Assembly (NCBI GenBank): GCA_964616825.1
Contig: CAZTSX010000002.1
Location: 79,811-143,810, forward strand
Reading direction: 5' to 3'
DNA: 64,000 bases
Source: an uncultured Prolixibacteraceae bacterium
Lineage (GTDB): Bacteria; Bacteroidota; Bacteroidia; Bacteroidales; FEN-979
Part shown: positions 9,895-52,226 of the stretch, in pieces
Layout: each line of letters opens with the position of its first letter
How positions within the stretch are numbered: position 1 is the first letter of the stretch
Notes under the pieces: generated by a model
Database searches by the model: none
What the model was told of the DNA's origin: nothing
What the model saw: the letters and a program-made list of their open reading frames with translations, nothing else
Position numbers and translations under genes: made by a program

Positions 9895-10734
9895 ATGCAA
9901 TACGACCCGATAAAACGTTCTCTGGGAGCCGCCTTCAACAAAACCCCGTTGATGCGGATTCTTTTCTACAAACTGCTGGACCTCCTCTTGCTTCGCACCT
10001 GGCATGTCAGAAAAGCTATCCGCCACTGGCATCGAGCATCGAGTATCGAGCATCCAGGATCCAGCATCCGGCATCCGGCATCGAAGTTTCTTGACGCCGG
10101 TTCAGGTTTTGGACAGTACACCTATTACCTGTCAGGATTAGGGAAGAACATCCATATAGATGCCATCGATGTGAAACAAGAGCAGATTGCGGATTGTAAA
10201 CGGTTTTTTTCACAGATAGGCAGAGAGAATGTAACGTTTGACGTGGCGGACCTGACTGCATACAGGAAACCGGAAGCCTACGATCTGATCCTATCAGTCG
10301 ATGTGATGGAACATATCATGGAAGATGAATTGGTCTTCCGGAACTTTCATGAATCGCTCAAACCGGGAGGAATGGTTCTGATCTCCACCCCATCTGACCA
10401 GGGGGGATCTGAAGTTCATAACCACGATCAGGATAGTTCATTTATCGATGAGCATGTGCGGGATGGATATGGAGTAACTGATATTCAGGAGAAACTTAAG
10501 CGAGCCGGTTTTCATGAGGTGGAAGTGCATTACACCTATGGAAAACCCGGACAGATCGGCTGGAAGCTCTCAATGAAGTATCCGATCCTGATGCTGAATG
10601 CCTCCAAAATTTTCTTCCTGCTGTTGCCGTTTTATTACATACTGACCTATCCGGCAGCCCTCATTTGTAACGCCCTGGATCTATGGCTGAAACACAAAAC
10701 CGGAACCGGTTTAATCGTAAAAGCATGGAAGTAG
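9895..10734 (+). CDS. class I SAM-dependent methyltransferase
   Basis: SAM-binding motif I LDAGSGFGQYTYYL, acidic DVADL, motif LILSVDVMEHI, LKPGGMVLIS. The N-terminal region contains the heptamer array at 10030-10085. Confidence 0.8.
   Translation: MQYDPIKRSLGAAFNKTPLMRILFYKLLDLLLLRTWHVRKAIRHWHRASSIEHPGSSIRHPASKFLDAGSGFGQYTYYLSGLGKNIHIDAIDVKQEQIADCKRFFSQIGRENVTFDVADLTAYRKPEAYDLILSVDVMEHIMEDELVFRNFHESLKPGGMVLISTPSDQGGSEVHNHDQDSSFIDEHVRDGYGVTDIQEKLKRAGFHEVEVHYTYGKPGQIGWKLSMKYPILMLNASKIFFLLLPFYYILTYPAALICNALDLWLKHKTGTGLIVKAWK
10030..10085 (+). repeat. heptamer array, CATCSRG family (8 units)
   Basis: CATCGAG CATCGAG TATCGAG CATCCAG GATCCAG CATCCGG CATCCGG CATCGAA, read in the CDS as HRASSIEHPGSSIRHPAS. 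Confidence 0.9.
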
Positions 10735-10738
10735 GGAT

Positions 10739-10770
10739 GGTGAGAGGGTGACAAGGTAACAAGGTGACAA
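10739..10770 (-). repeat. octamer array GGTGAGAG GGTGACAA GGTAACAA GGTGACAA (TCACC-type units on minus strand)
   Basis: Four 8-bp units read directly, just after the methyltransferase stop (10732-10734). Confidence 0.8.
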
Positions 10771-10801
10771 CGCAAAAAGAAATAACGAAATTTTGGAATC
10801 C

Positions 10802-10844
10802 ATGGCAATACAATGGCAATTTATGGCAATACAATGGCAATAAT
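10802..10844 (+). repeat. four ATGGCAAT boxes spaced 11, 10 and 11 bp
   Basis: ATGGCAAT at 10802, 10813, 10823 and 10834. The array ends 10 nt before the TTG start of the LolE-like gene. Confidence 0.85.
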
Positions 10845-10853
10845 ACTTAAACC

Positions 10854-12089
10854 TTGAACTTCTCCTTCTACATAGCCAAGCGGTACTTCAAATCGAAGAA
10901 ATCACACAACGTGATCAATATCATCTCGATGATCTCTGTGATAGGAGTAACCATTGGCACGATGGCGCTGATCATCGTTCTCTCTGTCTTTAACGGCTTC
11001 GAGAAGCTCGTCGTTTCTCTCTTCGACTCGTTTAATCCTGATATTCAAATCACGCTCCGGGAAGGGAAAATATTTCCGGATACAGATATACCACAGAGCC
11101 TGCTGAAGGAGATCCCGGGAGTGGTTTATCTGACGGAGGTGATGGAGGAGAATGCCTTGATGCGATACAAAGACAAACAAACCATCGTCACATTAAAGGG
11201 AGTAGGACCCGATTTTCAACGGATGACAGGTGTCGACACCATGATGGTAGAGGGGCACTTCCTGCTCCGGAGGGAAGATAAAAATTTCGCTGTGCTGGGC
11301 TATGGTGTAGCCTACTACCTCAACGCCAATCTGGACGACTACCTCAATCCCATCACCGTATTTGTCCCTTCCCGCACGGGCCGGATTGGGGGTTCCCTGG
11401 AGCAGGCCTTCAGCCAGGAACGTATCTTTCCTGCCGGTTTTTTCTCTATCCAGCAGGACTTCGATATGAAATACGCCATCATGCCACTCAGGTTTGTCAG
11501 AAATCTGCTTGATTACACTAACGAGATCACTGCTATCGAGATCAAGCTTCAGGATGGTACTGACCACAACAAGGTACAGCAGCAGATCGAGGCTGCAGTA
11601 GGCGATAAGTTTGTTGTGAAAAACAGGTTTCAACAACAGGAACTTCTATACAACATTATGAAGTCGGAGAAATGGGCTATATTCCTTATCCTCGCATTCA
11701 TTCTTCTGCTGGCTACGTTCAATGTGGTTGGCTCTCTCTCCATGTTGATCCTCGATAAGAAGAAAGATATTGCTGTTCTGCAAAGTATGGGAGCCAGCCG
11801 GAAACTGATCAAACGGATCTTCATGACTGAAGGCATGATGATCTCCTTGATCGGGGCCGTTACCGGCATGATCATTGGAGGAGTCATCTGCTGGCTTCAA
11901 CAAGTCTTTGGGTTGATCCGGATGGGTGGCCCCGACAGCACCTTTGTCGTCGATAGTTATCCCGTTCAAATGCAACCTCTCGATTTCATTCTTGTCTTTT
12001 TAACAGTGGTGCTGATTGGATATCTGGCTGCCTGGTACCCGGTATATAACATCCGGAAAATCAATACGTCACTTGTTAAACTTGATTAA
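10854..12089 (+). CDS. FtsX/LolE-family ABC transporter permease
   Basis: N-terminus FSFYIAKRYFKSKKSHNVINIISMISVIGV, one TM, a ~230-aa periplasmic loop, then three C-terminal TM helices (MacB/LolE topology). TTG start. Confidence 0.85.
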   Translation: MNFSFYIAKRYFKSKKSHNVINIISMISVIGVTIGTMALIIVLSVFNGFEKLVVSLFDSFNPDIQITLREGKIFPDTDIPQSLLKEIPGVVYLTEVMEENALMRYKDKQTIVTLKGVGPDFQRMTGVDTMMVEGHFLLRREDKNFAVLGYGVAYYLNANLDDYLNPITVFVPSRTGRIGGSLEQAFSQERIFPAGFFSIQQDFDMKYAIMPLRFVRNLLDYTNEITAIEIKLQDGTDHNKVQQQIEAAVGDKFVVKNRFQQQELLYNIMKSEKWAIFLILAFILLLATFNVVGSLSMLILDKKKDIAVLQSMGASRKLIKRIFMTEGMMISLIGAVTGMIIGGVICWLQQVFGLIRMGGPDSTFVVDSYPVQMQPLDFILVFLTVVLIGYLAAWYPVYNIRKINTSLVKLD

Positions 12090-12160
12090 TATATTCAATA
12101 ACCAACCATTCATGGTTAATAAATGTCTGATAAATAACAGATAACATCTAACTTTTTTAA

Positions 12161-12168
12161 TAACTTTG
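12161..12168 (+). promoter_or_regulatory. candidate -7 promoter element (TAACTTTG)
   Basis: Perfect TAnnTTTG 55 nt upstream of ATG 12223. No clear -33 TTTG. Confidence 0.3.
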
Positions 12169-12222
12169 ACGTTTTTACAGATATATACATATATAGAAGG
12201 AACTCTGATTAAATACGAGATT

Positions 12223-15200
12223 ATGATGAACTTTCTACTCACAAGGCGTGCTGTAGCATTAATGTTGTTTTGCATGCCGTTGTTGCTTTTTGCCGGAGAG
12301 ATCCGGATCAATTCCGGAAAAACAGAACTACACTTGACTACCAATACCTATCACCAGTTATCATTTACAAGCCATGTTTCCTCCATTCAGTTTCGGGATA
12401 TCCAGACAAAACTGGGCGATTTTACGGAGTTGTTTGTGCTTGGCTATGGATACAGCAGTGAAATAGGTGATCCGAAACTCCCTGTAAACAGGAAGTTGAT
12501 TGAGATTCCGATGGATGGAACCGTGGAGGTCCAGATCATCAACGCCGAGTTTACCGATTATTCCCTGGCAGGCTCCGGCATTAATTTCCGGATCATTCCA
12601 CAGCAACCCTCTTTGAGTAAAGCGATCACCGACCCCGAAGAGATTCCTTTTGTGATCAACGATGAGAGCTATCTTAAGAATGAGTTTCTGGGTGGTCCCC
12701 TGGTGTCCGTTACCCCGGTTGGAATCATGCGTGCAGTGAACCTGGCACGACTGGATATTTCCCCTGTGAAATATAACCCGGTTACAGGAACGTTACGAAT
12801 ATACAAGAATATTGAGGCAAAGATAAGCTTCACTAACGGGAATGAACAGGCTGCGATTGCCCGGAAGCAAGCGCTATTCTCACCCTATTTTGATAACATA
12901 TACAACCAGCTGGCCAATTACAAACACCTCACCGACGAATTGATCACTACTGCCCCGGTGACCTATATCATTGTAGCAGATCCTATGTTTGAGGATGCCC
13001 TGCAGCCTTTTATCGACTGGAAGAGTCGCAAAGGATTCAAAGTGGTTGAAGCCTATACGGATGATCCCACAGTAGGAACCTCAACCACATCCATCAGCAA
13101 TTACCTTGAAGATTTTTATACAAACCCTCCTGCAGGATATGAACCTCAGAGTTTTATCCTCTTTGTTGGTGATGTGCCCCAAATCCCCGCATTCAACGGA
13201 ACAGCCGGAAACCACCCGACGGATCTGTACTATTGTGAATATACCGGCGATAAAATCCCCGAATGTTATTATGGACGTTTTTCAGCAAACAACCTCGTCC
13301 AATTACAGCCTCAGATCGACAAAACACTTGAATACGAGCAGTACCTCTTCCCGGATGAAGTGTTCCTTGGTGAAGCAGTAATGGTTGCAGGATATGATGC
13401 CGGTGGCGCCGGGCTTACCTATGGAAACGGACAGATAAACTATGGAACCGAGAATTATTTCAATACCGCACACGGGATACTCTCTCACACCTATTTACAG
13501 CCGGAACCAGGAGGAGCGAACTATTCCGCCCAGATCAAACAAAATGTTTCTGATGGGGTTACCTATGCGAACTATACAGCCCATTGCGGCACTACAGGCT
13601 GGTCGAATCCCTCGTTTAAAATCAGCGATATTTCCAATCTGCAGAACGAAAATATGTATTGCCTGATGGTTGGGAATTGTTGCCTGAGTAATAAATTTAG
13701 TGGGATCTGTTTGGGCGAAGAACTATTGCGTGCTGAAAATAAAGGTGCACTGGGTTATATTGGAGGAACCAATAACACCATGTGGAATGAAGATTTCTGG
13801 TGGGCGGTCGGATTTGAAGCGATCTCAACCAATCCGCCTTATAACCCCAATCACCTGGGAGCCTATGATGTGACCTTTCACGACCATGGTGAGGCTATGG
13901 AAGACTGGTTTGTAACTCAGGGCCAGATGTTCGTCGGCGGGAATCTGGCTGTGGAGCAATCCAGCACCAGTACCAGTACTAAAACCTATTACTGGGAGAT
14001 CTATCACCTGATGGGAGATCCTTCACTGATGGTTTATATGGGAATACCCCCGGAATTGACAACTGTTTACCCGAATGAACTTCTAGTCGGATCCACCTCT
14101 GTAGATATCACAACCGAACCCTATGCTTATATCGGGCTCTCAAAAGATGGAGATACATATATCTCTTCAGCCTGCGCAGATTCCTCAGGCGATGCCACGC
14201 TTACCTTTGACGCGTTAACCGACCCCGGTTATATTGGGGTCGTTATCACCAAACAGAATTTCAAACCGCATATCGATTCCATTCAGATCATTCCCGCGGT
14301 AGGTCCCTACGTGACATTGACCTCTTTTATCGTGAATGATTCAATAGGCGGTAATAACAACGGCAATGCCGATTTCAGTGAAGATATTCTCCTTGGCCTG
14401 GAAGTCAGCAACATTGGCGTGGAACCTGCCTTGAACGTTACAGCTACGTTAACTTCCACCGATACCAATGTTGTCATTACAAACAACAACTGTGTCATCG
14501 ACTCTATCCCGGCAGGTGGGATCACGATCTGCCCGGATGCGTTTGCATTAACTGTGAATGATTTTGTAGAGGACCAGCATGTAGTGTTCTGTGAAGTCGT
14601 CTTTGAGGACGGGAATAATACCTGGACATCTCCGCTATTACTTACCCTGAATGCACCGGTACTTGTGGTGAATAATATTACGGTAATTGACCCGGCTCCT
14701 GGTGGGAATAATAATGGTGAGCTCGATCCGGGTGAAAATGCAATATTGCGGGTAACTACCAGAAATGAGGGCCATGCTGTTGTTGGAAATGGGCTTGGTC
14801 ACATGACCGTTCAACCGGAATCATCCCCATTTATTATTGTCAATGCACCAAATTGCCTGATAGGGGACTTCCCGCTAAATATCGATATTGAGGTTGATTT
14901 CCCTGTAGAAACCAACGGAATCACCCCGATCGGAACAATTGTCACCCTGGATTACAACGAAACTGCAGGAATGCAGAATCAATTTACTGCTCAGGAACAG
15001 TTTGCGATTGAGATTGGCGCCCTGGCTGTATTCACGATGCAAAATGGCTCTGAGAACACTTGCGGTGCACGTTTCTATGATTCTGGAGGTGAGTTTTTAC
15101 CTTACAGTAACAATGAGTATTTCACCATGACATTCTTTCCGTCTACTGCCGGGGCAATGCTGAAAGTTGACTTCACAGAATTTGTTTTGGAACCATCGGC

Positions 15201-16137
15201 CAACTGTAATTATGATTATCTGGCTATTTATGACGGGAACACCACACTGGCTCCACAGATCGGAAAATTTTGCGGAACTGACTCCCCGGGCTTGATTGAA
15301 TCCACAGCTGCGGATGGTTCACTAACATTTAAATTTGTTTCCGATTATTCTGAAATTTACCCTGGTTGGGAAGCTGTTATAAGTTGTGCAGGAGGTCCTC
15401 TTACACTCATGGCCAACGCATTCCCATCATCGGTTTGCCTTGGATCATCCTCCCGCCTGTCAGCAATCCCTTCAGGTGGAACAGGAACATATACCTACCT
15501 GTGGGAACCGGCTACCTATCTTGATGATCCAACCAGTCAGTTCCCATTATGTATACCTGACGCCAACATTACCTACACCGTAACCGTTAATGATGGCAAT
15601 GAAACCCTCGTCTCAGATCCTGTAGAAGTTACAGTTCTGCCTATACCGGATGCAGCCATAATTACTCTGAATGGAGACCTCCTTGTGTCGAGTGTCATTG
15701 ACGGAAACCAATGGTATTACTATGGAGCTGTGATCCCCGGAGCCAACCAGGCTACATACCAGCCTACGCTTACAGGGGAGTATTATGTTACAATTACCGA
15801 TGAAATCACAGGGTGTGAGTCAGATCCATCCAACACCATCTACTATCTCTTTGCCTCAATCGACCAGAAGGGTGCTGAGAGATTGATACATGTCTACCCC
15901 AACCCATTCACCGACCGGTTGAATATCACCTTTAACCTGACTGAACCCGCTGCCGTTAGAATCATTCTGACAGATTCATTTGGGAGGTTGATCAGGGTGA
16001 TGAAAGACCACTCTTCAGTTGCTGCCGGTCAGCATTCCATTACGTTGGAGAGCGGCAACATGCAGCCCGGAATGTATTACTGCCGGATCCAGACAAATGC
16101 CTATACCGTAATCCGAAAAGTTATTCTAACCAGATAA
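12223..16137 (+). CDS. gingipain-like peptidase C25 with CUB domain, T9SS cargo
   Basis: Start moved to ATG 12223 (MMNFLLTRRAVALMLFCMPLLLFAGE signal). C25 propeptide and catalytic domain (YIIVADPMFEDALQPFIDWKSRKGFKV, ILFVGDVPQIPAF, His context YTAHCGTTGW, Cys context MVGNCCLSNKF). CARDB-like domains. CUB domain at 15061-15387. T9SS CTD (HVYPNPFTDRLNITFNL...MYYCRIQT). Confidence 0.9.
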   Translation: MMNFLLTRRAVALMLFCMPLLLFAGEIRINSGKTELHLTTNTYHQLSFTSHVSSIQFRDIQTKLGDFTELFVLGYGYSSEIGDPKLPVNRKLIEIPMDGTVEVQIINAEFTDYSLAGSGINFRIIPQQPSLSKAITDPEEIPFVINDESYLKNEFLGGPLVSVTPVGIMRAVNLARLDISPVKYNPVTGTLRIYKNIEAKISFTNGNEQAAIARKQALFSPYFDNIYNQLANYKHLTDELITTAPVTYIIVADPMFEDALQPFIDWKSRKGFKVVEAYTDDPTVGTSTTSISNYLEDFYTNPPAGYEPQSFILFVGDVPQIPAFNGTAGNHPTDLYYCEYTGDKIPECYYGRFSANNLVQLQPQIDKTLEYEQYLFPDEVFLGEAVMVAGYDAGGAGLTYGNGQINYGTENYFNTAHGILSHTYLQPEPGGANYSAQIKQNVSDGVTYANYTAHCGTTGWSNPSFKISDISNLQNENMYCLMVGNCCLSNKFSGICLGEELLRAENKGALGYIGGTNNTMWNEDFWWAVGFEAISTNPPYNPNHLGAYDVTFHDHGEAMEDWFVTQGQMFVGGNLAVEQSSTSTSTKTYYWEIYHLMGDPSLMVYMGIPPELTTVYPNELLVGSTSVDITTEPYAYIGLSKDGDTYISSACADSSGDATLTFDALTDPGYIGVVITKQNFKPHIDSIQIIPAVGPYVTLTSFIVNDSIGGNNNGNADFSEDILLGLEVSNIGVEPALNVTATLTSTDTNVVITNNNCVIDSIPAGGITICPDAFALTVNDFVEDQHVVFCEVVFEDGNNTWTSPLLLTLNAPVLVVNNITVIDPAPGGNNNGELDPGENAILRVTTRNEGHAVVGNGLGHMTVQPESSPFIIVNAPNCLIGDFPLNIDIEVDFPVETNGITPIGTIVTLDYNETAGMQNQFTAQEQFAIEIGALAVFTMQNGSENTCGARFYDSGGEFLPYSNNEYFTMTFFPSTAGAMLKVDFTEFVLEPSANCNYDYLAIYDGNTTLAPQIGKFCGTDSPGLIESTAADGSLTFKFVSDYSEIYPGWEAVISCAGGPLTLMANAFPSSVCLGSSSRLSAIPSGGTGTYTYLWEPATYLDDPTSQFPLCIPDANITYTVTVNDGNETLVSDPVEVTVLPIPDAAIITLNGDLLVSSVIDGNQWYYYGAVIPGANQATYQPTLTGEYYVTITDEITGCESDPSNTIYYLFASIDQKGAERLIHVYPNPFTDRLNITFNLTEPAAVRIILTDSFGRLIRVMKDHSSVAAGQHSITLESGNMQPGMYYCRIQTNAYTVIRKVILTR

Positions 16138-16173
16138 AAACAGAAACCCAATAGAATCAGAACCATCATCAAA

Positions 16174-20925: not shown

Positions 20926-20957
20926 ATTCTTTGTTATTCGCTATTCTTAATTTTTAA

Positions 20958-21005
20958 CTCACCAGTTCACCAACTCACCAATTCACCACCTCACCAGTTC
21001 ACTAG
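20958..21005 (+). repeat. octamer array, YTCACCAN family (6 units)
   Basis: CTCACCAG TTCACCAA CTCACCAA TTCACCAC CTCACCAG TTCACTAG, between the barrel-gene stop (21013) and the Omp28-like start (20925). Confidence 0.9.
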
Positions 21006-21012
21006 TTTCTCC

Positions 21013-27167: not shown

Positions 27168-27863
27168 ATGAGGACACTCGAAAAAGAAAATTTCGAACGA
27201 TTATTTAAAGAGGAGTTTACCGGACTCGTTATTTTTGCCATCCAGTATGTCAAAGATTATGAAGCTGCCCGTGAGATCGTGCAGGAAGCATTTATCAATA
27301 TGTGGAGCAGAAGAGAGCAGATTGATCAGTCGAAAGCTGTGAAATCATACCTTATCACGTCGGTCAAAAACCGTTCTCTGAACCACCTTCGTGATAATAA
27401 TAAGTTTGACTCCAACTTGCTGGTTTCCGAAGATCTGTATCCATTACCTGCCTATCAGCAGTCTGATCACCTGGTAGAGAAGGAACTAAAGGAACAGATC
27501 ACGCTTGCGATTAAGGAACTTCCTGAGAAATGCCGCGAAGTTTTTCTGCTGAATCGGGATGAGCACATGAAGTATCAGGAGATTGCCGATCAACTTCAGA
27601 TCTCTGTAAAAACTGTCGAAACACAGATGTCGAAAGCGCTCCAGCACATGCGAAAAAAACTCAGGGATTATTTGATTGTATTATGCCTGATAAGCCTGAT
27701 AAGCCTGATGCCATTGCTTCATCACTATGTTCCTCACTATGATACACGAACCAACATTGTCATTGCGAGCGAAGCGACGCAACACCAGCTCACCAGCTCA
27801 CAATCTCACCAACATTTCATCAGGGTAAACCTCCTTTCATGTGTACTATTATCGGATAAATGA
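27168..27863 (+). CDS. ECF-type RNA polymerase sigma-70 factor with repeat-encoded C-terminal tail
   Basis: Region 2 (VQEAFINMWSRRE) and region 4 HTH (YQEIADQLQISVKTVETQMSKALQHMRKKL). After ...LRDYL about 60 extra codons run through the repeats at 27685-27820 to a TGA that overlaps the FecR ATG. Confidence 0.85.
   Translation: MRTLEKENFERLFKEEFTGLVIFAIQYVKDYEAAREIVQEAFINMWSRREQIDQSKAVKSYLITSVKNRSLNHLRDNNKFDSNLLVSEDLYPLPAYQQSDHLVEKELKEQITLAIKELPEKCREVFLLNRDEHMKYQEIADQLQISVKTVETQMSKALQHMRKKLRDYLIVLCLISLISLMPLLHHYVPHYDTRTNIVIASEATQHQLTSSQSHQHFIRVNLLSCVLLSDK
27685..27820 (+). repeat. composite short-repeat block (9-mers, hairpin, octamers)
   Basis: GCCTGATAA x2.5 (27685-27711), TCACTATG x2, hairpin TTGCGAGCGAAGCGACGCAA, then AACACCAG CTCACCAG CTCACAAT CTCACCAA CATTTCAT (27781-27820). 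Confidence 0.8.
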
Positions 27864-32576: not shown

Positions 32577-32625
32577 TATCCGGCATCCGGTATCCGGTAT
32601 CCGACATCTGGTATCCGGCATCAGA
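32577..32625 (+). repeat. heptamer array, CATCSRG family (7 units)
   Basis: TATCCGG CATCCGG TATCCGG TATCCGA CATCTGG TATCCGG CATCAGA. Intergenic. Confidence 0.9.
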
Positions 32626-43168: not shown

Positions 43169-43670
43169 ACAGTCATGATGTAACAATCGAAACAATCGAG
43201 ACAATCGTAACACCAAAATATCCGATTGGGCTATTTTTTTTCTTTTGATCTCTTTATCAGACCGAAAATCATCTGTCGGATCCTTATCATTTTGTCATTG
43301 GTTTCTTTGATTGTAGATATGTACGATAACCTAATTGCTATTTCAAGCTGAGTTTCAATTTCAGACAAGGACCCCAAAGAGATATAGAGAAATTGAACAA
43401 ACTCTTTATTATACTGTCTTGATGCGCCTTCGGCGATGTTTGAAGGGATCGAAACAGCTGCTCTACGCAATTGTTGGGATAATCCATACCGTTCTGAGAT
43501 GGGAAATTTTACTGTAATTTTGTAAATATCTTCAACCAGATCCATTGAGGTTTTCCAAACATCTAACCCTTTATGCATTCTCCTGTTTTCCATAGTTATT
43601 TCTTCATTAATCCGGAAAACCTCCAAAAGGTTATATCTTAGTTAACTTTTTTTTCGATTGTCATGACTGT
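43169..43670. mobile_element. imperfect-IR-bounded four-helix-bundle gene cassette
   Basis: Left ACAGTCATGA-tgtaa-CAATCG (43169-43189) against the reverse complement of the right CGATTGTCATGACTGT (43655-43670), giving 10+6 matching nt. Left flank also has 9-mers AACAATCGA x2 and GACAATCGT. Interior line counted at 38% GC against 47% in a flanking line. Confidence 0.4.
43231..43593 (-). CDS. four-helix-bundle protein (23S rRNA intervening-sequence protein / Avd-like family)
   Basis: LDVWKTSMDLVEDIYKITVKFPISERYGLSQQLRRAAVSIPSNIAEGASRQYNKEFVQFLYISLGSLSEIETQL is the hallmark pattern of this family. Start set at ATG 43593. Confidence 0.85.
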   Translation of the reverse strand: MENRRMHKGLDVWKTSMDLVEDIYKITVKFPISERYGLSQQLRRAAVSIPSNIAEGASRQYNKEFVQFLYISLGSLSEIETQLEIAIRLSYISTIKETNDKMIRIRQMIFGLIKRSKEKK

Positions 43671-43678
43671 CTCGACCA

Positions 43679-45574
43679 TCACGATAGCTCTCCCCGGATC
43701 TGCTCGAGTGCAGTTTCAGTTCCGAGTGCAATTACCAGGTCCCCCAGTCGAAGATGTGTGTCGCTATGGGGGACATGGAGCTCATCTTTGCGTTTGACCA
43801 GCATCAGGGCGCCATCTTTATGTAACGGGATATCTTTCACCTGGAGTCCGTCAACCGCTTCATTCAGGATGACAACCTCTTCCACGCTGAAACTTTCAAA
43901 GGTCTCCACCAGAGTATGATAGGTGGTTGGGCGCAGGATCAGGTTTTCGATCGTAGTCACAATGGTCCGATGCAAGTCGATGGTCTCAATGCCAATGCGG
44001 TTGTAAGTCTGCTCAAGTGTTTGGGAAGGTGCAACAGCAATGACCTGGTCGTGGTGAAACTGTTGGCGAAGAAGTTCGCAGATCCGGACATTTTCATCAG
44101 GAGATTCAGTCAGCACGACTACATAGTTGCCCGGCTTAAGGTTCAGATTGTTATATGTTTCCGGTTCTTTTCCGTCGGCGTGAATTGCATACATCCCTTT
44201 CTCTTCAATCTCCCTGAAACGTGAGAGGTTTTTCTCCACAATCACGGTGTGACGACCATGCAGTTTAAATCGTCGTGCCAGCAGGACAGCAGTGCTGCTT
44301 CCTCCTATGATAATCAACTTTTCCTCTGGCAGTAATGCTTTCGGACTGGTTTGGTTGTAAAGGATAGGAGAGAGGATACATGTGATGATAGCCATCAGGA
44401 TAACGGCTGCATTGATCTCCGGAGAAATAAGCTCCATCTGAAGGCCGATGGCAGAAGCTGCAATGATCAGGCTCAGTCGGGAAGAGATCAGGAAACCACC
44501 AGCAATAGCTCTCCTGAAGCCGAACAGTCGACTCCAGATCAACGAGGGAAGTACTTTAACCGCATATAATGTTACCAGAAAGAGGCCCAGAAATAGAAAC
44601 AGGGAACTCTCCAGGTTTGCCAGCACTGTGGGATCAAACCTGACCCCTACCATGATAAAAAATACAGGGATAAAGAAACCATATCCCATCCCATCCAGTT
44701 TCAACAGCAATAAGGAACGAGCTTTATGAGTATATGATGAGAGAAGCAATCCTCCCAGAAACGCGCCCAGCAACATCACTTCCCGACCAAAAAATTGAGA
44801 TAGTACAATGAAAATCAGCAGAATAAGAAGTGTTCCTCTCACCTTGATCTGTGAGACGGCTTCCGAAAGCTGAAAGGTCAGGCGCTTGATCAGAGGGATC
44901 TTTTTGATCAGGATGCCTGTGGAGTAAAAAATGAAAAAGAGCAGGAAGATCCCCAGGATCAACAAGATCTCAGGCTGGAATCCGTTTTTCAGTACAAATG
45001 CTGAAAAGGAAAAGAGGATGATACTTAGGATATCGGCAACCACAGCGGCCAGAATGATCATCTGCCCGTACCGGCTGGTGATCTCTCCCCGCTCTTTGAG
45101 TACCGGAACGATGATCCCGACCGATGTGGTGATCATGATCAGGGCAAAATAAAATGTGTTCTCCATGGGGATGAAGTCACTCAGGATGATAGCACTTCCA
45201 TAGGAGAGTCCAACTGTAATCAGGAAGATGGAAAATCCGACCAGCAGTGGGTTGCTTAAGTAACGGGAAACCGTCAGTCTTCGTCGTGGGAGGGAAGCGA
45301 TGACCTGGTCGACATCGATCTCCAGACCGCTCAGAAACATCAGGAACATAAATCCGGTAAAAGCCAGAAAGTCGAGGATCATCATGCTCTCCGGAGAAGA
45401 ATAACCGATTAGAAGCTTACCAAAAGCAAACCCGATAATGATCTCCATGATCACTGTCGGGACTTTTCGCATCCGCAGAACCGACATCAACAACGGCGTC
45501 ATCCAGGCAATAGCAACTATCACCAATAATGGGAGGTAGTCAAAGTAGCTGAATATCGCTAAAAAAAAGGTCAT
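43679..45574 (-). CDS. CPA2-family cation:proton antiporter with C-terminal RCK (TrkA-N/TrkA-C) domains
   Basis: About 12 TM helices, then a Rossmann-like LIIIGGSSTAVLLARRF and a TrkA-C-like tail. Start set at ATG 45574 (MTFFLAIFSY), although the ORF extends to TTG 45583. Confidence 0.85.
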   Translation of the reverse strand: MTFFLAIFSYFDYLPLLVIVAIAWMTPLLMSVLRMRKVPTVIMEIIIGFAFGKLLIGYSSPESMMILDFLAFTGFMFLMFLSGLEIDVDQVIASLPRRRLTVSRYLSNPLLVGFSIFLITVGLSYGSAIILSDFIPMENTFYFALIMITTSVGIIVPVLKERGEITSRYGQMIILAAVVADILSIILFSFSAFVLKNGFQPEILLILGIFLLFFIFYSTGILIKKIPLIKRLTFQLSEAVSQIKVRGTLLILLIFIVLSQFFGREVMLLGAFLGGLLLSSYTHKARSLLLLKLDGMGYGFFIPVFFIMVGVRFDPTVLANLESSLFLFLGLFLVTLYAVKVLPSLIWSRLFGFRRAIAGGFLISSRLSLIIAASAIGLQMELISPEINAAVILMAIITCILSPILYNQTSPKALLPEEKLIIIGGSSTAVLLARRFKLHGRHTVIVEKNLSRFREIEEKGMYAIHADGKEPETYNNLNLKPGNYVVVLTESPDENVRICELLRQQFHHDQVIAVAPSQTLEQTYNRIGIETIDLHRTIVTTIENLILRPTTYHTLVETFESFSVEEVVILNEAVDGLQVKDIPLHKDGALMLVKRKDELHVPHSDTHLRLGDLVIALGTETALEQIRGELS

Positions 45575-45577
45575 AAG

Positions 45578-45662
45578 GTTCAAAGTTCAAGTCTCAAGAC
45601 AACTTATCCAATATCTAACATCCAACATCTAATTATCAAGTCATCGAGCAACGAGCATCTAA
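45578..45662 (+). repeat. heptamer array with unit drift (about 12 units)
   Basis: GTTCAAA GTTCAAG TCTCAAG ... ATCCAAT ATCTAAC ATCCAAC ATCTAAT TATCAAG TCATCGAG CAACGAG CATCTAA. Fills the whole gap between two minus-strand genes. Confidence 0.85.
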
Positions 45663-46708
45663 AATATCATAACACCACTCTCCCCGGTCTCCCTGGCGAA
45701 GCCTCTGAACATCGCATTGGTATTAAATGGCATAGCGATGTTTCCATCCTGATCCACTGCGATCAATCCCCCATTTCCGCCCTGTGGCTTCAATTTCTCG
45801 AAAATGATGTAGTGGGCTGCATCTTTCACGCACATCCCCGAATATTCCATTAATGCCGACATATCATAAGCTACGGCATTCCGGATAAAATATTCGCCAT
45901 GTCCCGTCCCGGAAACAGCGCAGGTGGCATTGTTGGCATATGTTCCTGCTCCGATAATAGGAGTATCTCCGATTCTTCCTTTCATCTTCATCATCATCCC
46001 TCCCGTGGAGGTGCCAGCGGCCAGGTTCCCTTCCCGGTCAAGGGCAACAGCGCCTACTGTACCCTTGGTAGCTTCTTTCTTTAGCAACTTCTTTTTTGCC
46101 CGTTCAAATTGCCCGGTACGTCTTTGCGTTAGGAAGTAGGAAGGATCGACGATCTCCAGTCCGCTTTTTTCAGCTAAGAGTTCAGCCCCTTCCCCCATCA
46201 ACAGCACATGTTTGGTGTTAATCATCACCTCCCTGGCCGCACTGATTGGATTCCTGATGGTTTTAACTCCGGTTACCGCACCGGCCATCAGGCTCTTTCC
46301 ATCCATAATGGAAGCATCCAGTTCAGCAAACCCTTCGTCGTTATAAACGGCTCCTTTACCGGCGTTAAACAGAGGGCAATCTTCCATAAATACAATCACC
46401 GACTCCACTGCATCCAGACTGCTTCCACCTTGGTCAAGGATATCTGCTCCTACTTGCAATGCTTCGGCAAGTTTATCCTTATACTGCTTCTCCCTCTCTT
46501 CCGACATCGACCCTCTGGATACTCCGCCAGCCCCACCATGAATGACTAGTACCCAATTTCCGATCCTGGATTCTGGATCCTGGATTGTGGATGTTGAGTC
46601 ATTTTGACCAAAACCAGACAGGTTAATTAAAAACATTATCATCAGCAATAATCCACATCCAGCATCAAGCATCCAGCATCTAGCATCAAACATCTTGACT
46701 CTTTTCAT
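45659..46708 (-). CDS. isoaspartyl peptidase / L-asparaginase (Ntn hydrolase)
   Basis: VIHGGAGG, autoprocessing site GTVGAVALD (Thr nucleophile), GAGTYANN, GTGHGEYFIR. The start codon is uncertain because codons 6-20 are encoded by the array at 46651-46699. Confidence 0.85.
   Translation of the reverse strand: MKRVKMFDARCWMLDAGCGLLLMIMFLINLSGFGQNDSTSTIQDPESRIGNWVLVIHGGAGGVSRGSMSEEREKQYKDKLAEALQVGADILDQGGSSLDAVESVIVFMEDCPLFNAGKGAVYNDEGFAELDASIMDGKSLMAGAVTGVKTIRNPISAAREVMINTKHVLLMGEGAELLAEKSGLEIVDPSYFLTQRRTGQFERAKKKLLKKEATKGTVGAVALDREGNLAAGTSTGGMMMKMKGRIGDTPIIGAGTYANNATCAVSGTGHGEYFIRNAVAYDMSALMEYSGMCVKDAAHYIIFEKLKPQGGNGGLIAVDQDGNIAMPFNTNAMFRGFARETGESGVMIF
46651..46699 (+). repeat. heptamer array, CATCSRG family (7 units)
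   Basis: ATCCACA TCCAGCA TCAAGCA TCCAGCA TCTAGCA TCAAACA TCTTGAC. On the minus strand it reads as MFDARCWMLDAGCG at the N-terminus of the asparaginase ORF. Confidence 0.85.
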
Positions 46709-46712
46709 TGTC

Positions 46713-47495
46713 TTAATTTAATATGTTTTGAAAAATCTCTTTAAAATCAATAATGCCTGTGATCTTCAATATTACAAGGATCACGGAAGCAACGATCACC
46801 CAACGAATGAATTTCCCGCCCTTTTTAACAGCCATCATGCTGGCGATATAGGCGCCGAAGATACTCCCGATCGACAGGAGAATACCATACAGGTAATGAA
46901 CCTGGTCGCTCACAATGAATATCACCAGGGAAACCGCTGCCGAAAAGAGGACGATCAGGTTTTTCACGGCATTTGCTTTTACCAATTCAAACCCGACACC
47001 AAGCACAAGGGCCAAAAGCAGAAAATAACCAACTCCCACCTGCAGGAAACCGGCATACAAGCCAACAGCAAAAAAGAGTAAAATCTGCCACCACTGGATC
47101 TTCTTATCCAGCAATGTCGTATTCTCTTTCATCCATTGTGAAGGCTTTGCAAAGAGGAAAATAAGCATGCATGCCATGATGATCACCATCGCAATCTCAA
47201 GCACTTCTGCTTTGATCCCGGTAGCTACCCATGCACCCAAAATGGAGCCTGCAGTAGCAGGGATGATCAACCACCAGATCTTCCGGGTGGTATACAGCTG
47301 CTTTCTCCAGAATGTGACTACTGAAGAAGAAGTTTGAAAAAATATGCTCACCCGGTTTGTGCCGTTGGCAATGGTTGCCGGAAGTCCGAGGATCAGAAGC
47401 AGCGATAAGGAGATCACAGATCCTCCGCCCGCCAGCGTATTGATAAATCCGACCAGAATTCCCGCACCAATGATTATAATGTATTCAACCCACAT
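46713..47495 (-). CDS. TauE/SafE family sulfite/anion exporter
   Basis: 260 aa, 7-8 TM. Two-fold repeat with GGGSVISLSLLL and the family-typical layout. Confidence 0.8.
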   Translation of the reverse strand: MWVEYIIIIGAGILVGFINTLAGGGSVISLSLLLILGLPATIANGTNRVSIFFQTSSSVVTFWRKQLYTTRKIWWLIIPATAGSILGAWVATGIKAEVLEIAMVIIMACMLIFLFAKPSQWMKENTTLLDKKIQWWQILLFFAVGLYAGFLQVGVGYFLLLALVLGVGFELVKANAVKNLIVLFSAAVSLVIFIVSDQVHYLYGILLSIGSIFGAYIASMMAVKKGGKFIRWVIVASVILVILKITGIIDFKEIFQNILN

Positions 47496-47502
47496 TCAAA
47501 TT

Positions 47503-47510
47503 CAAAATTA
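47503..47510 (-). promoter_or_regulatory. candidate -7 promoter element (TAATTTTG on minus strand)
   Basis: CAAAATTA on the plus strand, 8 nt upstream of ATG 47495. Confidence 0.35.
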
Positions 47511-47515
47511 CAAAT

Positions 47516-47523
47516 TATCTTTG
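47516..47523 (+). promoter_or_regulatory. candidate -7 promoter element (TATCTTTG)
   Basis: Perfect TAnnTTTG, with ATG 47538 lying 15 nt after the final G. Sits back to back with the 47503-47510 motif. Confidence 0.35.
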
Positions 47524-47537
47524 CAAAAAAACCTACT

Positions 47538-48155
47538 ATGAAGATAGCCATATTCGGAGCCAGTGGACGAACCGGGATAATGACTGTTTATCAGGCTCTT
47601 GATAAAGGATATGAAGTCAATGCATTTGCCAGGAAAGCTTTCAATGTAACGATCCGGCATCCGAATATCAGGATTGTTGAAGGAGATATACTCGATTATC
47701 AAAAAGTGAAGGAGGCAGTTGAAGGTGTCGATGCTGTAATTATCACACTGGGGATGGATAAAAACAAGCCCCTCCGCACCTTCTCGGATGGTACCGCCAA
47801 CATCATTAAAGCGATGAAAGAATATGGCGTAAAGCGACTTATCTGTATGTCTTCAGCTGGTCTATTGGGCAAGGACACCCATCCGGTTTTCGGGAAAATC
47901 ATCATCCCGCTTTTTCTGAATCATATCTATGCAGATAAGAAAGAGCAGATGAAGATTATTATCGGGAGCGGATTGGAGTGGATCATCATCCGGCCTCCCC
48001 GGTTGACCCAGGCGCCCAAAACAGGGAAATACCAACTCACGGAAGGTCGCCCCGGAACCCGGTCTGTCCCACGTGCCGATGTAGCCGATTTCATGCTGAA
48101 GCTGGTAAAAGACAAATCTTACGACGGGAAGATACCTGCTATCGCCAGTTATTAA
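47538..48155 (+). CDS. NAD(P)H-binding protein, atypical SDR (NmrA/flavin-reductase-like)
   Basis: MKIAIFGASGRTG Rossmann start. 205 aa. Confidence 0.8.
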   Translation: MKIAIFGASGRTGIMTVYQALDKGYEVNAFARKAFNVTIRHPNIRIVEGDILDYQKVKEAVEGVDAVIITLGMDKNKPLRTFSDGTANIIKAMKEYGVKRLICMSSAGLLGKDTHPVFGKIIIPLFLNHIYADKKEQMKIIIGSGLEWIIIRPPRLTQAPKTGKYQLTEGRPGTRSVPRADVADFMLKLVKDKSYDGKIPAIASY

Positions 48156-48188
48156 GCTTATGTTCTTCCGAAACTGCATAAGTGTAGT

Positions 48189-48196
48189 TATCTTTG
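48189..48196 (+). promoter_or_regulatory. candidate -7 promoter element (TATCTTTG)
   Basis: Perfect TAnnTTTG 31 nt upstream of ATG 48227. It overlaps the TTG start at 48194 of the longer ORF. Confidence 0.35.
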
Positions 48197-48226
48197 TGTC
48201 ACTTATACTTAAATTTCTTACGACCT

Positions 48227-49423
48227 ATGCCTGAACTAAGTAACCATGTACATGATCTCGTCTCTCGTGATCTGGAAGAGATCCGAACCATTAGACGCCA
48301 TCTGCATCAGCACCCTGAGCTATCCAAAGAGGAGCACAAGACAGCCGATTATATTTGCCAACGACTGGACCAACTCAACATTCCATATCAAAGAGGTGTA
48401 GCAGGCAATGGAATTGTGGGGCTGATCGAAGGAAAGAATCCGGGCAAAAGATGCATCGCGCTGAGAGCAGATATGGATGCGTTGCCGGTGAAAGAGGAGA
48501 ATAAAACAGATTACGTTTCACAGGAACCAGGCAAAATGCATGCTTGCGGACACGATGTTCACATGACCTGCCTGCTTGGCGCAGCCCGGATTCTATCGGA
48601 GTTGAAAGAGCAATTTACAGGAACAGTGAAGCTGCTGTTCCAGCCCTCGGAGGAGACATATCCGGGAGGAGCTATCGGGATGATCGACGAAGGGGTTCTT
48701 GAGAACCCGGATGTACAGGTAGTAATCGGACAACATGTGACGCCAAACCTGGATGCAGGGAAAGCCGGCTTCAACCCGGGGCCCGATATGGCATCAACCG
48801 ATGAAATTTTTCTTACTGTAAAAGGGAAAGGCGGACATGCAGCAATACCCAACTTCGTCGTGGACCCGGTTGTGATCGCCGCACACATCATTCTGGCACT
48901 TCAGCAGATTGTTAGTCGCCACGCAGAACCTACGCTTCCTACCGTGATCTCGTTTGGACGAATTGTTGGCGAAGGGCGTACAAACATCATCCCGGATGAA
49001 GTGAAGATTGACGGGACTGTCAGAACATACGACGAAACCTGGAGAAAAGAGATCCACAGGAAAATTGAGACCATTGCTTCTTCGATTGCCGTAAGCATGG
49101 GTGGAAGTTGTGAGGTGAAAATCTCCAGCGGCTATCCTTACCTTCATAATGAAGAGCAACTGACCACCCAACTGCAACATCTTGCCGGAGAATATTTGGG
49201 AGAAGGGAACGTTGTTAACCTTGAAAGGCGTATGACTGCAGAAGACTTTGCCTATTTCGCCCAGCGGGTTCAATCCTGCCTTTACAGGCTGGGCATTCGC
49301 AATGAGGCCAAAGGCATCAATTCCGGTTTGCATTCATCTACGTTTGATATCGATGAAACTGCACTTGAGACTGGCACCGGGCTCATGGCCTGGTTCGCCA
49401 TCAACCTGCTAAACGAGAAGTAG
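48227..49423 (+). CDS. M20 family amidohydrolase (N-acyl-L-amino-acid amidohydrolase-like)
   Basis: IRRHLHQHPELSKEE, MHACGHDVH, LLFQPSEE. Paralogue of 24395..25543. Confidence 0.88.
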   Translation: MPELSNHVHDLVSRDLEEIRTIRRHLHQHPELSKEEHKTADYICQRLDQLNIPYQRGVAGNGIVGLIEGKNPGKRCIALRADMDALPVKEENKTDYVSQEPGKMHACGHDVHMTCLLGAARILSELKEQFTGTVKLLFQPSEETYPGGAIGMIDEGVLENPDVQVVIGQHVTPNLDAGKAGFNPGPDMASTDEIFLTVKGKGGHAAIPNFVVDPVVIAAHIILALQQIVSRHAEPTLPTVISFGRIVGEGRTNIIPDEVKIDGTVRTYDETWRKEIHRKIETIASSIAVSMGGSCEVKISSGYPYLHNEEQLTTQLQHLAGEYLGEGNVVNLERRMTAEDFAYFAQRVQSCLYRLGIRNEAKGINSGLHSSTFDIDETALETGTGLMAWFAINLLNEK

Positions 49424-49432
49424 CCTGTAAGC

Positions 49433-51331
49433 ATGAGACTCTATATTGCTTTTATTCTAATTCTTTTCACGTTTCACGTCTCACGTTTCACGTCTTACGG
49501 GCAAACTGAATCCACTACCCTCCCCAAACAACTTCCCTTTCAACAACAGGCACAAATCAAGCCTCCGGTAGATGAAGCCAGGCTTGCAATGAAATTCTAC
49601 CAGGCAAAAGATTTCGAGAAATCGGTAGAGCTCTATGAGAAACTATACAACAAGAAACCCTCCTCCTTTTACTATATGTATTACTTGCACAGTCTGATCG
49701 AGCTGAAGGAATATAAAAAAGCAGAGAAGCTGATCAAAGCCCGTAGAAAAAGTGATTCCCGAGCGGTGAAATACCTGGTTGACCTCGGCTATCTTCACTA
49801 CCGGGAGGGAAATGCAGAGAAAGCCAGAAAATTATATGATGAATCAGTGGATAATCTGGAAGCTGATCAACAGCAGATCTCCGGCCTGGCTAATGCTTTC
49901 ATCCTGAAAGGGGAGAACAGTTATGCCCTCAGGACATATCTGAAAGGCAGGGAGTTGTTACAAGGCGCCTATCCGTTCGGTTTTGAACTGGCCAATGTAT
50001 ACCAACGGATGGGCGATTTTCCCAATTTGTTCGAGGAGTACCTAAATTTGCTTGAAGTCAACGAGAGTTACCTGCGTACCGTTCAGGACCGACTTCAGAA
50101 TATCCTGATAAAAGATCCTGATAACTCCCGGAATGAACTTTTTCGTCAGGCATTGCTTACACGGGTACAGGGCTCGCCGGATCAACCCACCTATGCCGAC
50201 TTGCTCTGGTGGTACTCAATTCAACAAAAGGATTTCGAGTTGGCCCTGATCCAGTCGAAAGCCCTCGATCGTCGAAGACAGGAACAGGGCAGCCGGATCA
50301 TCCAGCTTGCGCAGCTGGCAGTATCCAACAGGCAATATGACATCGCACTCGATGCATATAAGTATCTGCAAGGGAAAGGGGAGGCGTATCCCTATTACGA
50401 CATCAGCAGGATTGAATGGGCAAATACCCGTTTCCTTCACATGACAACTAGTACCAATTCCGTTGAAAAGGATCTGACTGAATTGGAAAATGAGTTTTGG
50501 GAAGTACTTGAGTTCACCGGTGAGAACCGTCAATCTGTATCCCTGATGCAAAACCTGGCTCACCTGGAAGCTTTCTACCTTGGCCATCCGGATATCGCTA
50601 TCGATCTGCTCAACAGGGCTATAGCGTTGAAAGATATAGATCCGAAACAGCGGGCATACTGCAAGCTCGAGTTAGCAGATATTCTGCTTTTTTTTGGTGA
50701 TGTGTGGGAAGCTACATTGTTGTATCAGCAAGTGTATCAGAAGTACAAATACGATGTGTTGGGACAGACCGCAAAATTCAAAAACACCATGCTCTCATTC
50801 TATATTGGGGAGTTCAGCTGGGCAAAAGCTCAGGCTGATATACTCAAAGCAGCTACCGATAAATTGATTGCCAACGATGCCCTGGCCTTATCAATCCTGA
50901 TTGGTGAGAATTTCGATCCCGACTCCAATACGGTCGCTCTAACGATGTATGCAGAAGCTGATCTGTTGAGTTTCAAGCATGAAGACGAAGAGGCATTACA
51001 GTTGTTGGATTCAATACCCACGCTTTTTGGCTACCACCCTATCCTGGATGATATCTTGCTGAAAAAAGCAGAGATTTATGAAAAAAGTGGACGGTTTGAG
51101 GTGGCCGACAGCTTGCTGCAAAAAATTACGACAACATATCCGGAAGAGGTTCTGGCCGACAAAGCTCTTTTTTTTCGTTCGGTGTTGCAGGAAAACCGGC
51201 TGAATGATCCTGACAAAGCGATGGAACTCTACGGAAAATTGCTGGAAGATTATCCAGGCAGCATCTATGTAGTGGATGCCAGAAAAAGGTTTAGATATTT
51301 ACGGGGAGATACCATTCGCATTGAACCTTGA
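49433..51331 (+). CDS. tetratricopeptide-repeat protein (secreted)
   Basis: Multiple TPR-like helix pairs (AMKFYQAKDFEKSVELYEKLY, LGYLHYREGNAEKARKLYDESV, ...). The N-terminal hydrophobic segment partly coincides with the heptamer array at 49465-49499. Confidence 0.75.
   Translation: MRLYIAFILILFTFHVSRFTSYGQTESTTLPKQLPFQQQAQIKPPVDEARLAMKFYQAKDFEKSVELYEKLYNKKPSSFYYMYYLHSLIELKEYKKAEKLIKARRKSDSRAVKYLVDLGYLHYREGNAEKARKLYDESVDNLEADQQQISGLANAFILKGENSYALRTYLKGRELLQGAYPFGFELANVYQRMGDFPNLFEEYLNLLEVNESYLRTVQDRLQNILIKDPDNSRNELFRQALLTRVQGSPDQPTYADLLWWYSIQQKDFELALIQSKALDRRRQEQGSRIIQLAQLAVSNRQYDIALDAYKYLQGKGEAYPYYDISRIEWANTRFLHMTTSTNSVEKDLTELENEFWEVLEFTGENRQSVSLMQNLAHLEAFYLGHPDIAIDLLNRAIALKDIDPKQRAYCKLELADILLFFGDVWEATLLYQQVYQKYKYDVLGQTAKFKNTMLSFYIGEFSWAKAQADILKAATDKLIANDALALSILIGENFDPDSNTVALTMYAEADLLSFKHEDEEALQLLDSIPTLFGYHPILDDILLKKAEIYEKSGRFEVADSLLQKITTTYPEEVLADKALFFRSVLQENRLNDPDKAMELYGKLLEDYPGSIYVVDARKRFRYLRGDTIRIEP
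49465..49499 (+). repeat. heptamer array TTTCACG family (5 units)
   Basis: TTTCACG TTTCACG TCTCACG TTTCACG TCTTACG, translated as FHVSRFTSYG inside the putative signal peptide. Confidence 0.85.
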
Positions 51332-51342
51332 ACCCGCACCTT

Positions 51343-52226
51343 ATGACCTTATTCGCTAAGAAATCCCTTGGCCAACATTTCATGACAGATGAGAACATCG
51401 CCAGGAAAATCATCGGATACCTGAATCCGGAGATTCCATGTGTGTTGGAGATTGGTCCAGGCAAAGGAATATTGACAAAATACCTGCTTGAAAACCCTGC
51501 ATTCAATCCCCTCTTCATCGAGATCGACAAGAACGTAGCAGCTTATTTAAAACAAACTTATCCGACGATCAAGGACAAGCTAGTGGAGAAGGATTTTCTG
51601 CAACTTGACCTTTACAAATTGACAAAAACACAAAACCACAAGCCACAAGTTCAAAAAGACATCCAATCATCCAACATCCAACATCGAGCATCGAGCATCG
51701 AGCATCGAGCATCGAGCATCGAGCATCGAGCATCGAGCATCGAGTACCGAGAATCCAGCTCCTCGGAAACTTCCCTTACAACATCTCCTCACAGATCCTC
51801 TTCCGGGTGATTGAATACAAAGACAAGGTTGAAGAACTGGTCGGGATGTTTCAGCGCGAAGTAGCACAACGGATCGCCTCTCCACCCGGATCAAGAAAGT
51901 ATGGCATTCTGAGTGTCCTACTGCAGGCATATTACGATATTGAGTACCTGATGTCTGTTAGCGAAAAGGTATTTCAACCTCCCCCTAAGGTGAAATCAGC
52001 CGTGATCAGATTGAAGAGAAACGATGTTAAGGCGCTTGATTGCGACGAAGCTTTTTTCATCAAGGTGGTAAAAACCGCTTTCAACCAACGCCGGAAGATG
52101 CTTCGAAACTCCTTGCGCTCGGTGGCTGGGTCCGGATTCTCCGATTGGGATGATCCGGTCATGAGGAAGCGACCGGAGCAGCTTTCAGTGGATGAGTTTA
52201 CCCGGCTTACCCGCCTGATACAGTAG
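51343..52226 (+). pseudogene. rsmA: 16S rRNA (adenine1518/1519-N6)-dimethyltransferase RsmA/KsgA, reading frame broken inside a heptamer array
   Basis: N-terminal half in frame 1 (FAKKSLGQHFMTD, VLEIGPGKGILT, EIDKN, EKDFLQLDL) ends at TGA 51808-51810. C-terminal half in frame 3 (IQLLGNFPYNISSQILF, MFQREVAQRIASPPGSRKYGILSV, FQPPPKVKSAVIRLKRN, FNQRRKMLRNSL) is open from 51609 to 52226. Confidence 0.85.
51621..51758 (+). repeat. heptamer array inside rsmA (about 20 units, 9 perfect CATCGAG)
   Basis: ACAAAAA CACAAAA CCACAAG CCACAAG TTCAAAA ... CATCCAA x3, then CATCGAG x9 (51682-51744), TACCGAG, AATCCAG. Confidence 0.92.

Follow-up and report, generated by a model that had tools for sequence, protein, structure and literature searches.

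Heptamers are the over-represented class among the longer simple sequence repeats (SSRs) of bacteria, and polymerase slippage has been proposed as the cause (PMC4692102). Heptameric SSRs have been described in Calothrix/Nostoc and in Xanthomonas (PMC4692102). Beggiatoaceae, cyanobacteria and five Bacteroidetes carry heptamer direct repeats as well, and their strains differ by indels in 7-nt steps (MacGregor 2015, PMC4679880). A heptanucleotide tract within a coding sequence (CDS) is known from NeuO of the Escherichia coli K1 prophage CUS-3 (PMC8653822). Here we analyse a stretch of 64,000 nt (the window) from an uncultured Prolixibacteraceae bacterium (GCA_964616825.1, contig CAZTSX010000002.1, positions 79,811 to 143,810), in which tandem arrays of YATCSRG units lie at dispersed sites. 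One of them interrupts ksgA (rsmA), whose product dimethylates A1518 and A1519 of 16S rRNA.

Heptamer arrays as such are known already, Bacteroidetes included. The YATCSRG family, its phyletic spread, its occupation of a KsgA loop and the frame polymorphism of ksgA appear to be undescribed in the literature searched, in which no description of a phase-variable ksgA was found either. In this study, we report that intact and broken ksgA alleles, differing in their number of CATCGAG units, coexist in genomes that are 99.8-99.99% identical. The arrays are most probably slippage-driven heptamer repeats resembling the short tandemly repeated repetitive (STRR) sequences of cyanobacteria, without fixed strand polarity and tolerated in coding loops, and ksgA flips between intact and broken as a side effect.

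The CATCGAG tract of ksgA

In the window, ksgA is split around a tract designated array 5:

51343..51810, + strand: N-terminal ksgA/rsmA fragment of 155 aa that loses the frame beyond the 9 units (Pfam RrnaAD profile positions 4-96)
51621..51758, + strand: array 5, inserted in ksgA after the FLxLDL strand and before the GNFPY catalytic motif
51807..52226, + strand: C-terminal ksgA/rsmA fragment of 139 aa, read in another frame and matching Pfam RrnaAD profile positions 123-235

Array 5 begins with decayed units (ACAAAAA, CCACAAG, CATCCAA), continues with 9 perfect CATCGAG units and ends with TACCGAG and AATCCAG. A CDS thus contains a perfect tandem tract whose unit length, 7 nt, is not divisible by 3. 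An earlier note on this DNA, made from the sequence alone, had listed the array and had missed that it interrupts ksgA and sets its frame. GNFPY is out of frame in both fragments of the window's 9-unit allele, which should therefore be inactive. The exact N-terminal fragment (P0002) is found on 7 contigs, as is the C-terminal fragment (P0006).

Other alleles restore the gene. The 10-unit allele (contig L001) encodes one protein of 296 aa, which scores 235.6 bits against a cut-off of 171 for the ksgA equivalog TIGR00755, and the 7-unit allele encodes an intact KsgA of 289 aa. By contig, 10 units were counted 13 times, 7 units 7 times, 9 units 7 times, 8 units 4 times and 6 units once. Alleles with 7 and 10 units are in frame; those with 6, 8 and 9 units yield truncated fragments. 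Counts were verified on the DNA for the window (9), L002/L144 (9), L001/L143 (10) and L150/L151 (7). Among near-identical genomes, the number of units thus toggles the reading frame. The window and L001 are 99.95% identical over 20.8 kb, with 3 substitutions and 1 indel, and this sole indel corresponds precisely to a single CATCGAG unit of array 5.

The product of array 5 is an insert of about 40 residues in a loop of KsgA/RsmA, predicted to be disordered. In Coxiella KsgA (3tqs), its place is taken by a 6-residue link, between residues 91 and 98 and just before GNLPY. In the AlphaFold model of the 10-unit allele (mean predicted local distance difference test (pLDDT) score 88.7), the insert is a low-confidence coil with pLDDT 48-73. 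GNFPY is invariant in the KsgA alignment. Among the best 120 KsgA homologues (Bacteroidales, 50-98% identity), the loop varies from 10 to 79 residues. Peptide repeats at lag 7 are present in this loop in 16 of 121 sequences, at lag 8 in 1 and at other lags in 0; the heptapeptides of relatives include HPTSNIQ, HPASSIQ, TDNRQLT and QQATSNQ. Relatives at just 50-80% identity also have a repeat tract in the same loop.

A different recurrent insert, ...P(S/T)P..EGSKSPSGDLGV..., occupies this loop (equivalent to window 51600-51760) in several relatives, namely P0026, P0029, P0030, P0031, P0033, P0036, P0038 and P0039. It looks like another dispersed repeat element that is read through in frame. The presence of both 7-residue repeats and EGSKSPSGDLGV inserts in one loop points to a long-standing permissive site that was repeatedly occupied by short tandem arrays. 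Heptamer arrays are hence not limited to intergenic DNA, as the case of ksgA illustrates: they can colonise the loop of a housekeeping enzyme, persist clade-wide and repeatedly break and restore the gene.

Length change and the fate of ksgA

All five heptamer arrays of the earlier note were recovered by Tandem Repeats Finder and direct reading, with the unit types described there (CATCGAG, CATCCAG, CATCCGG and TATCCGG). A lag-autocorrelation scan (threshold at least 16 of 21 matches, block shuffles as controls) yields 8 arrays of period 7 and 5-6 of period 8 for the window, where shuffles yield 0.0-0.2; lags 3-6 and 10-13 yield 0. Such numbers far exceed chance expectation, and the periodicity is specific to 7 (with 8). 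Besides array 5, the period-7 arrays and two of their host genes are:

9895..10734, + strand: class I S-adenosylmethionine (SAM)-dependent methyltransferase CDS, 279 aa (Pfam Methyltransf_31/25/12/11), host of array 1
10030..10085, + strand: array 1, 8 imperfect units, within the methyltransferase CDS above
32577..32625, + strand: array 2, imperfect YATCCGG units, intergenic
45578..45662, + strand: array 3, drifting GTTCAAR, ATCCAAY/ATCTAAY and CATCGAG/CAACGAG units, intergenic
45659..46708, - strand: Asparaginase_2 / beta-aspartyl-peptidase CDS, 349 aa, whose N-terminal region contains both array 4 and the reversed array
46561..46596, - strand: reversed array, ATCCAGR units (CTGGATY on +), inside the asparaginase CDS, codons ~39-49
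46651..46699, + strand: array 4, CATCCAG/CATCAAG/CATCTAG units, antisense in the asparaginase CDS, first ~19 codons
49461..49501, + strand: unrelated heptamer array TTTCACG/TCTCACG at the start of a TPR gene
62632..62673, - strand: ATCTAAN/TTCTAAA array (ATTTAGA on +), intergenic, between two minus-strand genes

Within arrays 3 and 5, the unit sequence does drift. CATCGAG, CATCCAG, CATCCGG and TATCCGG, and also CATCCAA, are free of stop codons in all six frames, and arrays 1, 4 and 5 lie in CDSs, in agreement with the tolerance inside coding sequences proposed before.

We infer that slipped-strand mispairing creates the arrays at their sites and alters their length, and that point mutations make them decay, perfect tracts being their unstable part. 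The proposal of the earlier note, growth by local slippage plus mutation, is borne out by the one-unit indel relative to L001, by the alleles of 6-10 units and by changed arrays in a sister lineage. This lineage (L140) is syntenic with the window at 88-92% DNA identity. Its arrays lie at the same sites and in the same orientation, with changed unit counts and sequences: array 3 has one CAACGAG unit more than in the window, the ksgA array reads (CATCCAA)5(CATCGAG)3, array 4 has units mutated to TATCGCG, and (CTGGATC)4 stands at the site of the reversed array. Across all the contigs sampled, no variation was seen in the imperfect arrays 2, 3 and 4 or in the octamer arrays described below.

The quasi-palindromic unit CATCGAG (GC + A + TCGA) may itself favour slippage. 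A perfect CATCGAG tract is predicted to fold back through its GC and TCGA palindromes with a bulged A (-14.9 kcal/mol, z -3.1), plausibly as an aid to slippage. Within a gene, every three units add one heptapeptide (HRASSIE and similar), and since YATCSRG units are stop-free in six frames, the arrays can persist inside genes at permissive sites. Any unit change that is not a multiple of three shifts the frame of ksgA, so that in the same population complex the 9-unit allele is broken (OFF) and the 7- and 10-unit alleles are intact (ON). The OFF alleles would represent real cells, not consensus errors.

A further step would be to regard the ksgA array, and perhaps the methyltransferase array, as an adaptive contingency locus kept by selection as a reversible ON/OFF switch in the manner of NeuO. 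Subpopulations would then have 16S rRNA unmethylated at A1518/A1519, altered translation and kasugamycin-type resistance. ON (7, 10) and OFF (6, 8, 9) alleles in such closely related genomes fit this idea, as does the persistence of a repeat tract in the same KsgA loop across relatives of 50-80% identity, and NeuO is a precedent for a heptanucleotide tract in a CDS (PMC8653822). In-frame alleles are also enriched (20 of 32 contigs against an expected 1/3, p=0.001, the contigs not being independent), but purifying selection against broken alleles predicts this enrichment equally. Moreover, the alleles are seen between contigs and not as a change within one clone or sample, ksgA is a housekeeping gene, unlike the surface and restriction-modification genes that make up typical phasomes, and the same loop takes non-slippery inserts such as the EGSKSPSGDLGV element, which suggests simple permissiveness. 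On balance, we regard an adaptive switch with these consequences as rather unlikely. That ksgA of this marine Bacteroidales clade is a true contingency gene of the variable number tandem repeat (VNTR) type, with slippage of the heptanucleotides reversibly switching dimethylation of A1518/A1519, is likewise unlikely. If true, it would mean phase variation of a core translation factor and not of a surface structure, ribosome heterogeneity and probably aminoglycoside (kasugamycin-type) tolerance within populations.

Conversely, the copy-number differences, and hence the ksgA frameshift, could be assembly or consensus artefacts of arrays that are real but stable. The in-frame alleles come solely from JGI assemblies and the out-of-frame alleles mostly from ENA/NCBI assemblies, and the methyltransferase array of a sister lineage is a scaffold gap. 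However, the alleles recur in several independent assemblies (13, 7, 7 and 4 contigs), two different in-frame lengths occur within the JGI data alone, the periodic tract of ~96 nt is below read length or the largest k-mer, and the sister lineage has the same kind of unit-count change at three arrays. We therefore hold an artefact to be improbable.

The gap in question consists of 100 N (L149 1330-1429, ~window 10060). A 187-aa methyltransferase (P0013), considered as a second frameshift case, was rejected, since its truncation is false and results from the 100-N gap at the array. Such arrays evidently trouble assemblers. For annotation, this means that split or 'partial' ksgA and methyltransferase calls and some scaffold gaps in these metagenome-assembled genomes (MAGs) are caused by the arrays. 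At the same time, dozens of metagenomes contain natural allelic series at defined loci, and slippage rates and selection could be measured directly in their reads.

Strand orientation and individual arrays

From the CATC-type unit on the + strand at all five of its loci, the earlier note had deduced a uniform polarity over 40 kb, and from this it had suggested a link to replication direction or to a strand-specific binding factor. The uniformity does not hold: the ATC-type arrays at 46561-46596 and 62632-62673 are on the minus strand. Both were absent from the earlier census, and the former lies within the span that it covered, just 56 nt from array 4. Widening the region by 16.7 kb to -8270..72486 (80.7 kb) added two ATC-type arrays, both on the + strand. 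The resulting excess of 7 on + to 2 on - would agree with a polarity but is not significant (binomial p=0.18), and it arises likewise when orientation is scored against local genes. Even the original 5:0 split taken alone has p=0.06. With a GC skew of -0.008, the extended region as a whole gives no indication of the direction of replication.

Other genomes were covered by a pattern scan for four consecutive ATCSRG units, one genome per species, which gave at least 120 loci. Among the matches listed, neighbouring YATCSAG arrays are oriented alike in 6 cases and opposite in 5, flanking gene direction gives no preference (15:18), and tightly adjacent inverted pairs are common. In favour of a polarity, the CATC strand tends to be the G-rich strand: of 68 YATCSAG arrays among the matches listed, 42 are concordant and 26 discordant with local GC skew (Fisher p=0.088). 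Taken together, orientation by replication direction or by a strand-specific factor, uniform over tens of kb, is unsupported, and we consider it very improbable.

The opposite arrays show an order of their own. Adjacent ATC-type arrays of opposite orientation are mostly (CTGGATG)n followed by (CATCCAG)n, i.e. (GAT)n before (ATC)n, in 17 pairs against 6 overall and in 8 against 1 at <=60 nt apart (p ~0.04). Such sites are window 46561-46596 with 46652-46696, L148 13070-13200, and sites in L044, L059, L080, L108, L120, L125 and L126.

We find it scarcely credible that the arrays regulate genes in cis or bind RNA or protein, a role proposed for the TAACTGA repeats upstream of starts in Beggiatoaceae, or that they are a horizontally spread mobile repeat. 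The same YATCSAG units do occur in many phyla among the matches listed, one additional array ends 17 nt before a start codon and arrays 3 and 5 have similar decayed leaders, but the positions are heterogeneous (sense or antisense within CDSs, behind stop codons, 71 nt before a start), the 15:18 count shows no preferred orientation relative to genes, conserved flanks and target duplications are lacking, and unit sequences drift freely between the sister lineages.

Slippage without fixed polarity remains the preferred explanation, and several points weigh against it. All length variants are consensus contigs of metagenome assemblies, one array is the scaffold gap mentioned above, so that some unit counts could be assembly errors, and the split of ksgA alleles between JGI and ENA/NCBI may be an effect of pipeline or of population. 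The weak trend for the CATC strand to be the G-rich strand may reflect some strand bias. Slippage does not explain the order preference of inverted pairs (17:6) or the recurrence of YATCSAG in distant phyla, and it leaves unexplained why the units have seven bases, as is the case for the heptamers among bacterial SSRs in general.

Concerning the individual arrays, array 1 consists of CATCGAG (twice), TATCGAG, CATCCAG, GATCCAG, CATCCGG (twice) and CATCGAA. It encodes HRASSIEHPGSSIRHPAS, directly upstream of SAM motif I (LDAGSG). The exact 279-aa protein is found on 25 contigs, and in related lineages the array varies in frame, giving proteins of 272, 279 and 286 aa, i.e. in multiples of 21 nt. 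Array 2 is flanked by a DUF4249 gene and by a gene of unknown function (312 aa), whose start lies 71 nt downstream of the array; it is invariant in 7 further contigs. Array 3 separates the asparaginase stop from the start of a Na+/H+ exchanger gene, both genes being on the minus strand. Array 4 is unchanged in L001 and L002; together with the reversed array it forms an imperfect inverted repeat with a predicted long imperfect hairpin (-24.3 kcal/mol, z -4.4).

Arrays 3 and 5 (45578-45662 and 51621-51700) resemble each other in their decayed units, CAAGT-TCAA...ATCCAAT-ATC-AACATCCAACATC, with a local alignment score of 41. This stretch may reflect common origin or parallel drift. A CGTGAAA array, the reverse complement of TTTCACG, lies 1.4 kb upstream of the window (L145 6822-6855 = window -1448..-1415), ~51 kb from the TTTCACG array, and directly adjoins an AATCCAG/CATCGAG array.

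A second family has 8-nt units (TCACCAGT, TCACCAAT, CACCAGCT and the complement GGTGACAA). Its arrays, in both orientations, are located as follows:

1698-1731, octamer array
10734-10775, octamer array
20956-21007, octamer array
27783-27811, octamer array
57886-57928, octamer array
-318 and -4927 (L145 coordinates), further octamer arrays

Each of them is either intergenic or at the end of a gene, and none differs between the contigs compared; the sister lineage has extra octamer arrays (L140 4370-4412, 9959-10006). Further short tandem repeats at 10802-10842, 27685-27709 and 43182-43212 are ATGGCAATACA (period 11/21), GCCTGATAA x2.8 and AACAATCGA x3.4. Rfam and tRNA scans of the window found nothing.

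The host is evident from the gene content. The window encodes T9SS-tailed proteins (Por_Secre_tail), TonB-dependent receptor/DUF4249 genes, a 23S_rRNA_IVP gene and ECF sigma/FecR pairs. A cyanobacterial origin was rejected because of this Bacteroidota gene content and because the HIP1 octamer has no copy in the window. Exact or near-exact proteins are encoded on dozens of marine metagenome contigs, the closest named protein relatives are from 'Bacteroidales bacterium' and 'Bacteroidota bacterium' MAGs, and from ~2 kb to 66 kb the window matches the 295-kb contig Ga0105015_1000008 of JGI 3300007770. Three independent contigs, L136, L137 and L138, all end at window ~43634, just beyond the 23S_rRNA_IVP-family gene (43231-43626). 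This gene is absent from the syntenic sister lineage L140 and is probably a strain-variable insertion that breaks assemblies.

Comparison with known heptamer repeats

Arrays of the same type are widely distributed. Among the matches listed in the pattern scan, the hosts are Bacteroidales, Calditrichia, Melioribacter, Acidobacteriota, Planctomycetota, Desulfobacterales, Chloroflexota, Verrucomicrobiota, cyanobacteria and Xanthomonas. In 855 kb from the at least 120 foreign loci, 284 period-7 arrays were detected, against <=31 at any non-multiple lag. Of these 284 arrays, 157 have other, unrelated units, which indicates that genomes with YATCSAG arrays carry heptamer arrays in general. Counts of arrays inside long open reading frames (ORFs) of these loci were dropped, since stop-free arrays lengthen ORFs artificially.

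The degenerate pattern scan also turned up the GGGAATC repeats of Xanthomonas and the GGGGA(T/C)T repeats of Nostoc themselves (L036, L129, L070). These are over-represented heptameric SSRs as well, with inverted pairs and with length variation between close relatives (Rehm 2015, PMC4692102). Unlike the arrays of the window, they are G-rich, quadruplex-forming and intergenic, whereas the units described here are not G-rich and also occupy CDSs: CATCGAG, CATCCAG and CATCCGG contain no G-tract, and the window has no tandem GGGAATC or GGGGATT.

The repeats of MacGregor 2015 (PMC4679880) share with ours Bacteroidetes hosts, 7-nt indels between strains, mixed heptamers in shared intergenic regions and occasional arrays in ORFs, there in a stop-free orientation. 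TAACTGA, which has no tandem copies in the window, is mostly in forward orientation a few nt upstream of a start, whereas the window arrays are without such a preference. YATCSRG is, in addition, stop-free in both orientations.

STRR-like, as the earlier note had called the arrays, is an apt description as to their organisation. As far as the STRR sequences are described in PMC4692102, both are dispersed tandem 7-nt units in several families, mostly short, with diverse heptamers in the same regions, and the 8 arrays in 64 kb are tandem heptanucleotides at multiple dispersed loci. STRR1 (CCCCAGT), STRR2 (TTGGTCA) and STRR3 (CAACAGT) have no tandem copies on either strand of the window. Measured against the same account, the host is an uncultured marine member of the Bacteroidales and not a heterocystous cyanobacterium, the units are YATCSRG, and three arrays lie in CDSs.

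For the coding-sequence case, the closest characterised analogue is the poly-psi tract (AAGACTC)n of NeuO (PMC8653822). The NeuO tract is located at the 5' end of a phage-borne capsule-modifying gene, comprises 14-39 units and switches as demonstrated experimentally; the ksgA tract is located in an internal loop of a housekeeping gene and comprises 6-10 perfect units, its switching being deduced solely from metagenome alleles. Both are heptanucleotide tracts in a CDS in which certain unit numbers keep the frame, heptapeptides are added and the counts vary between close relatives.

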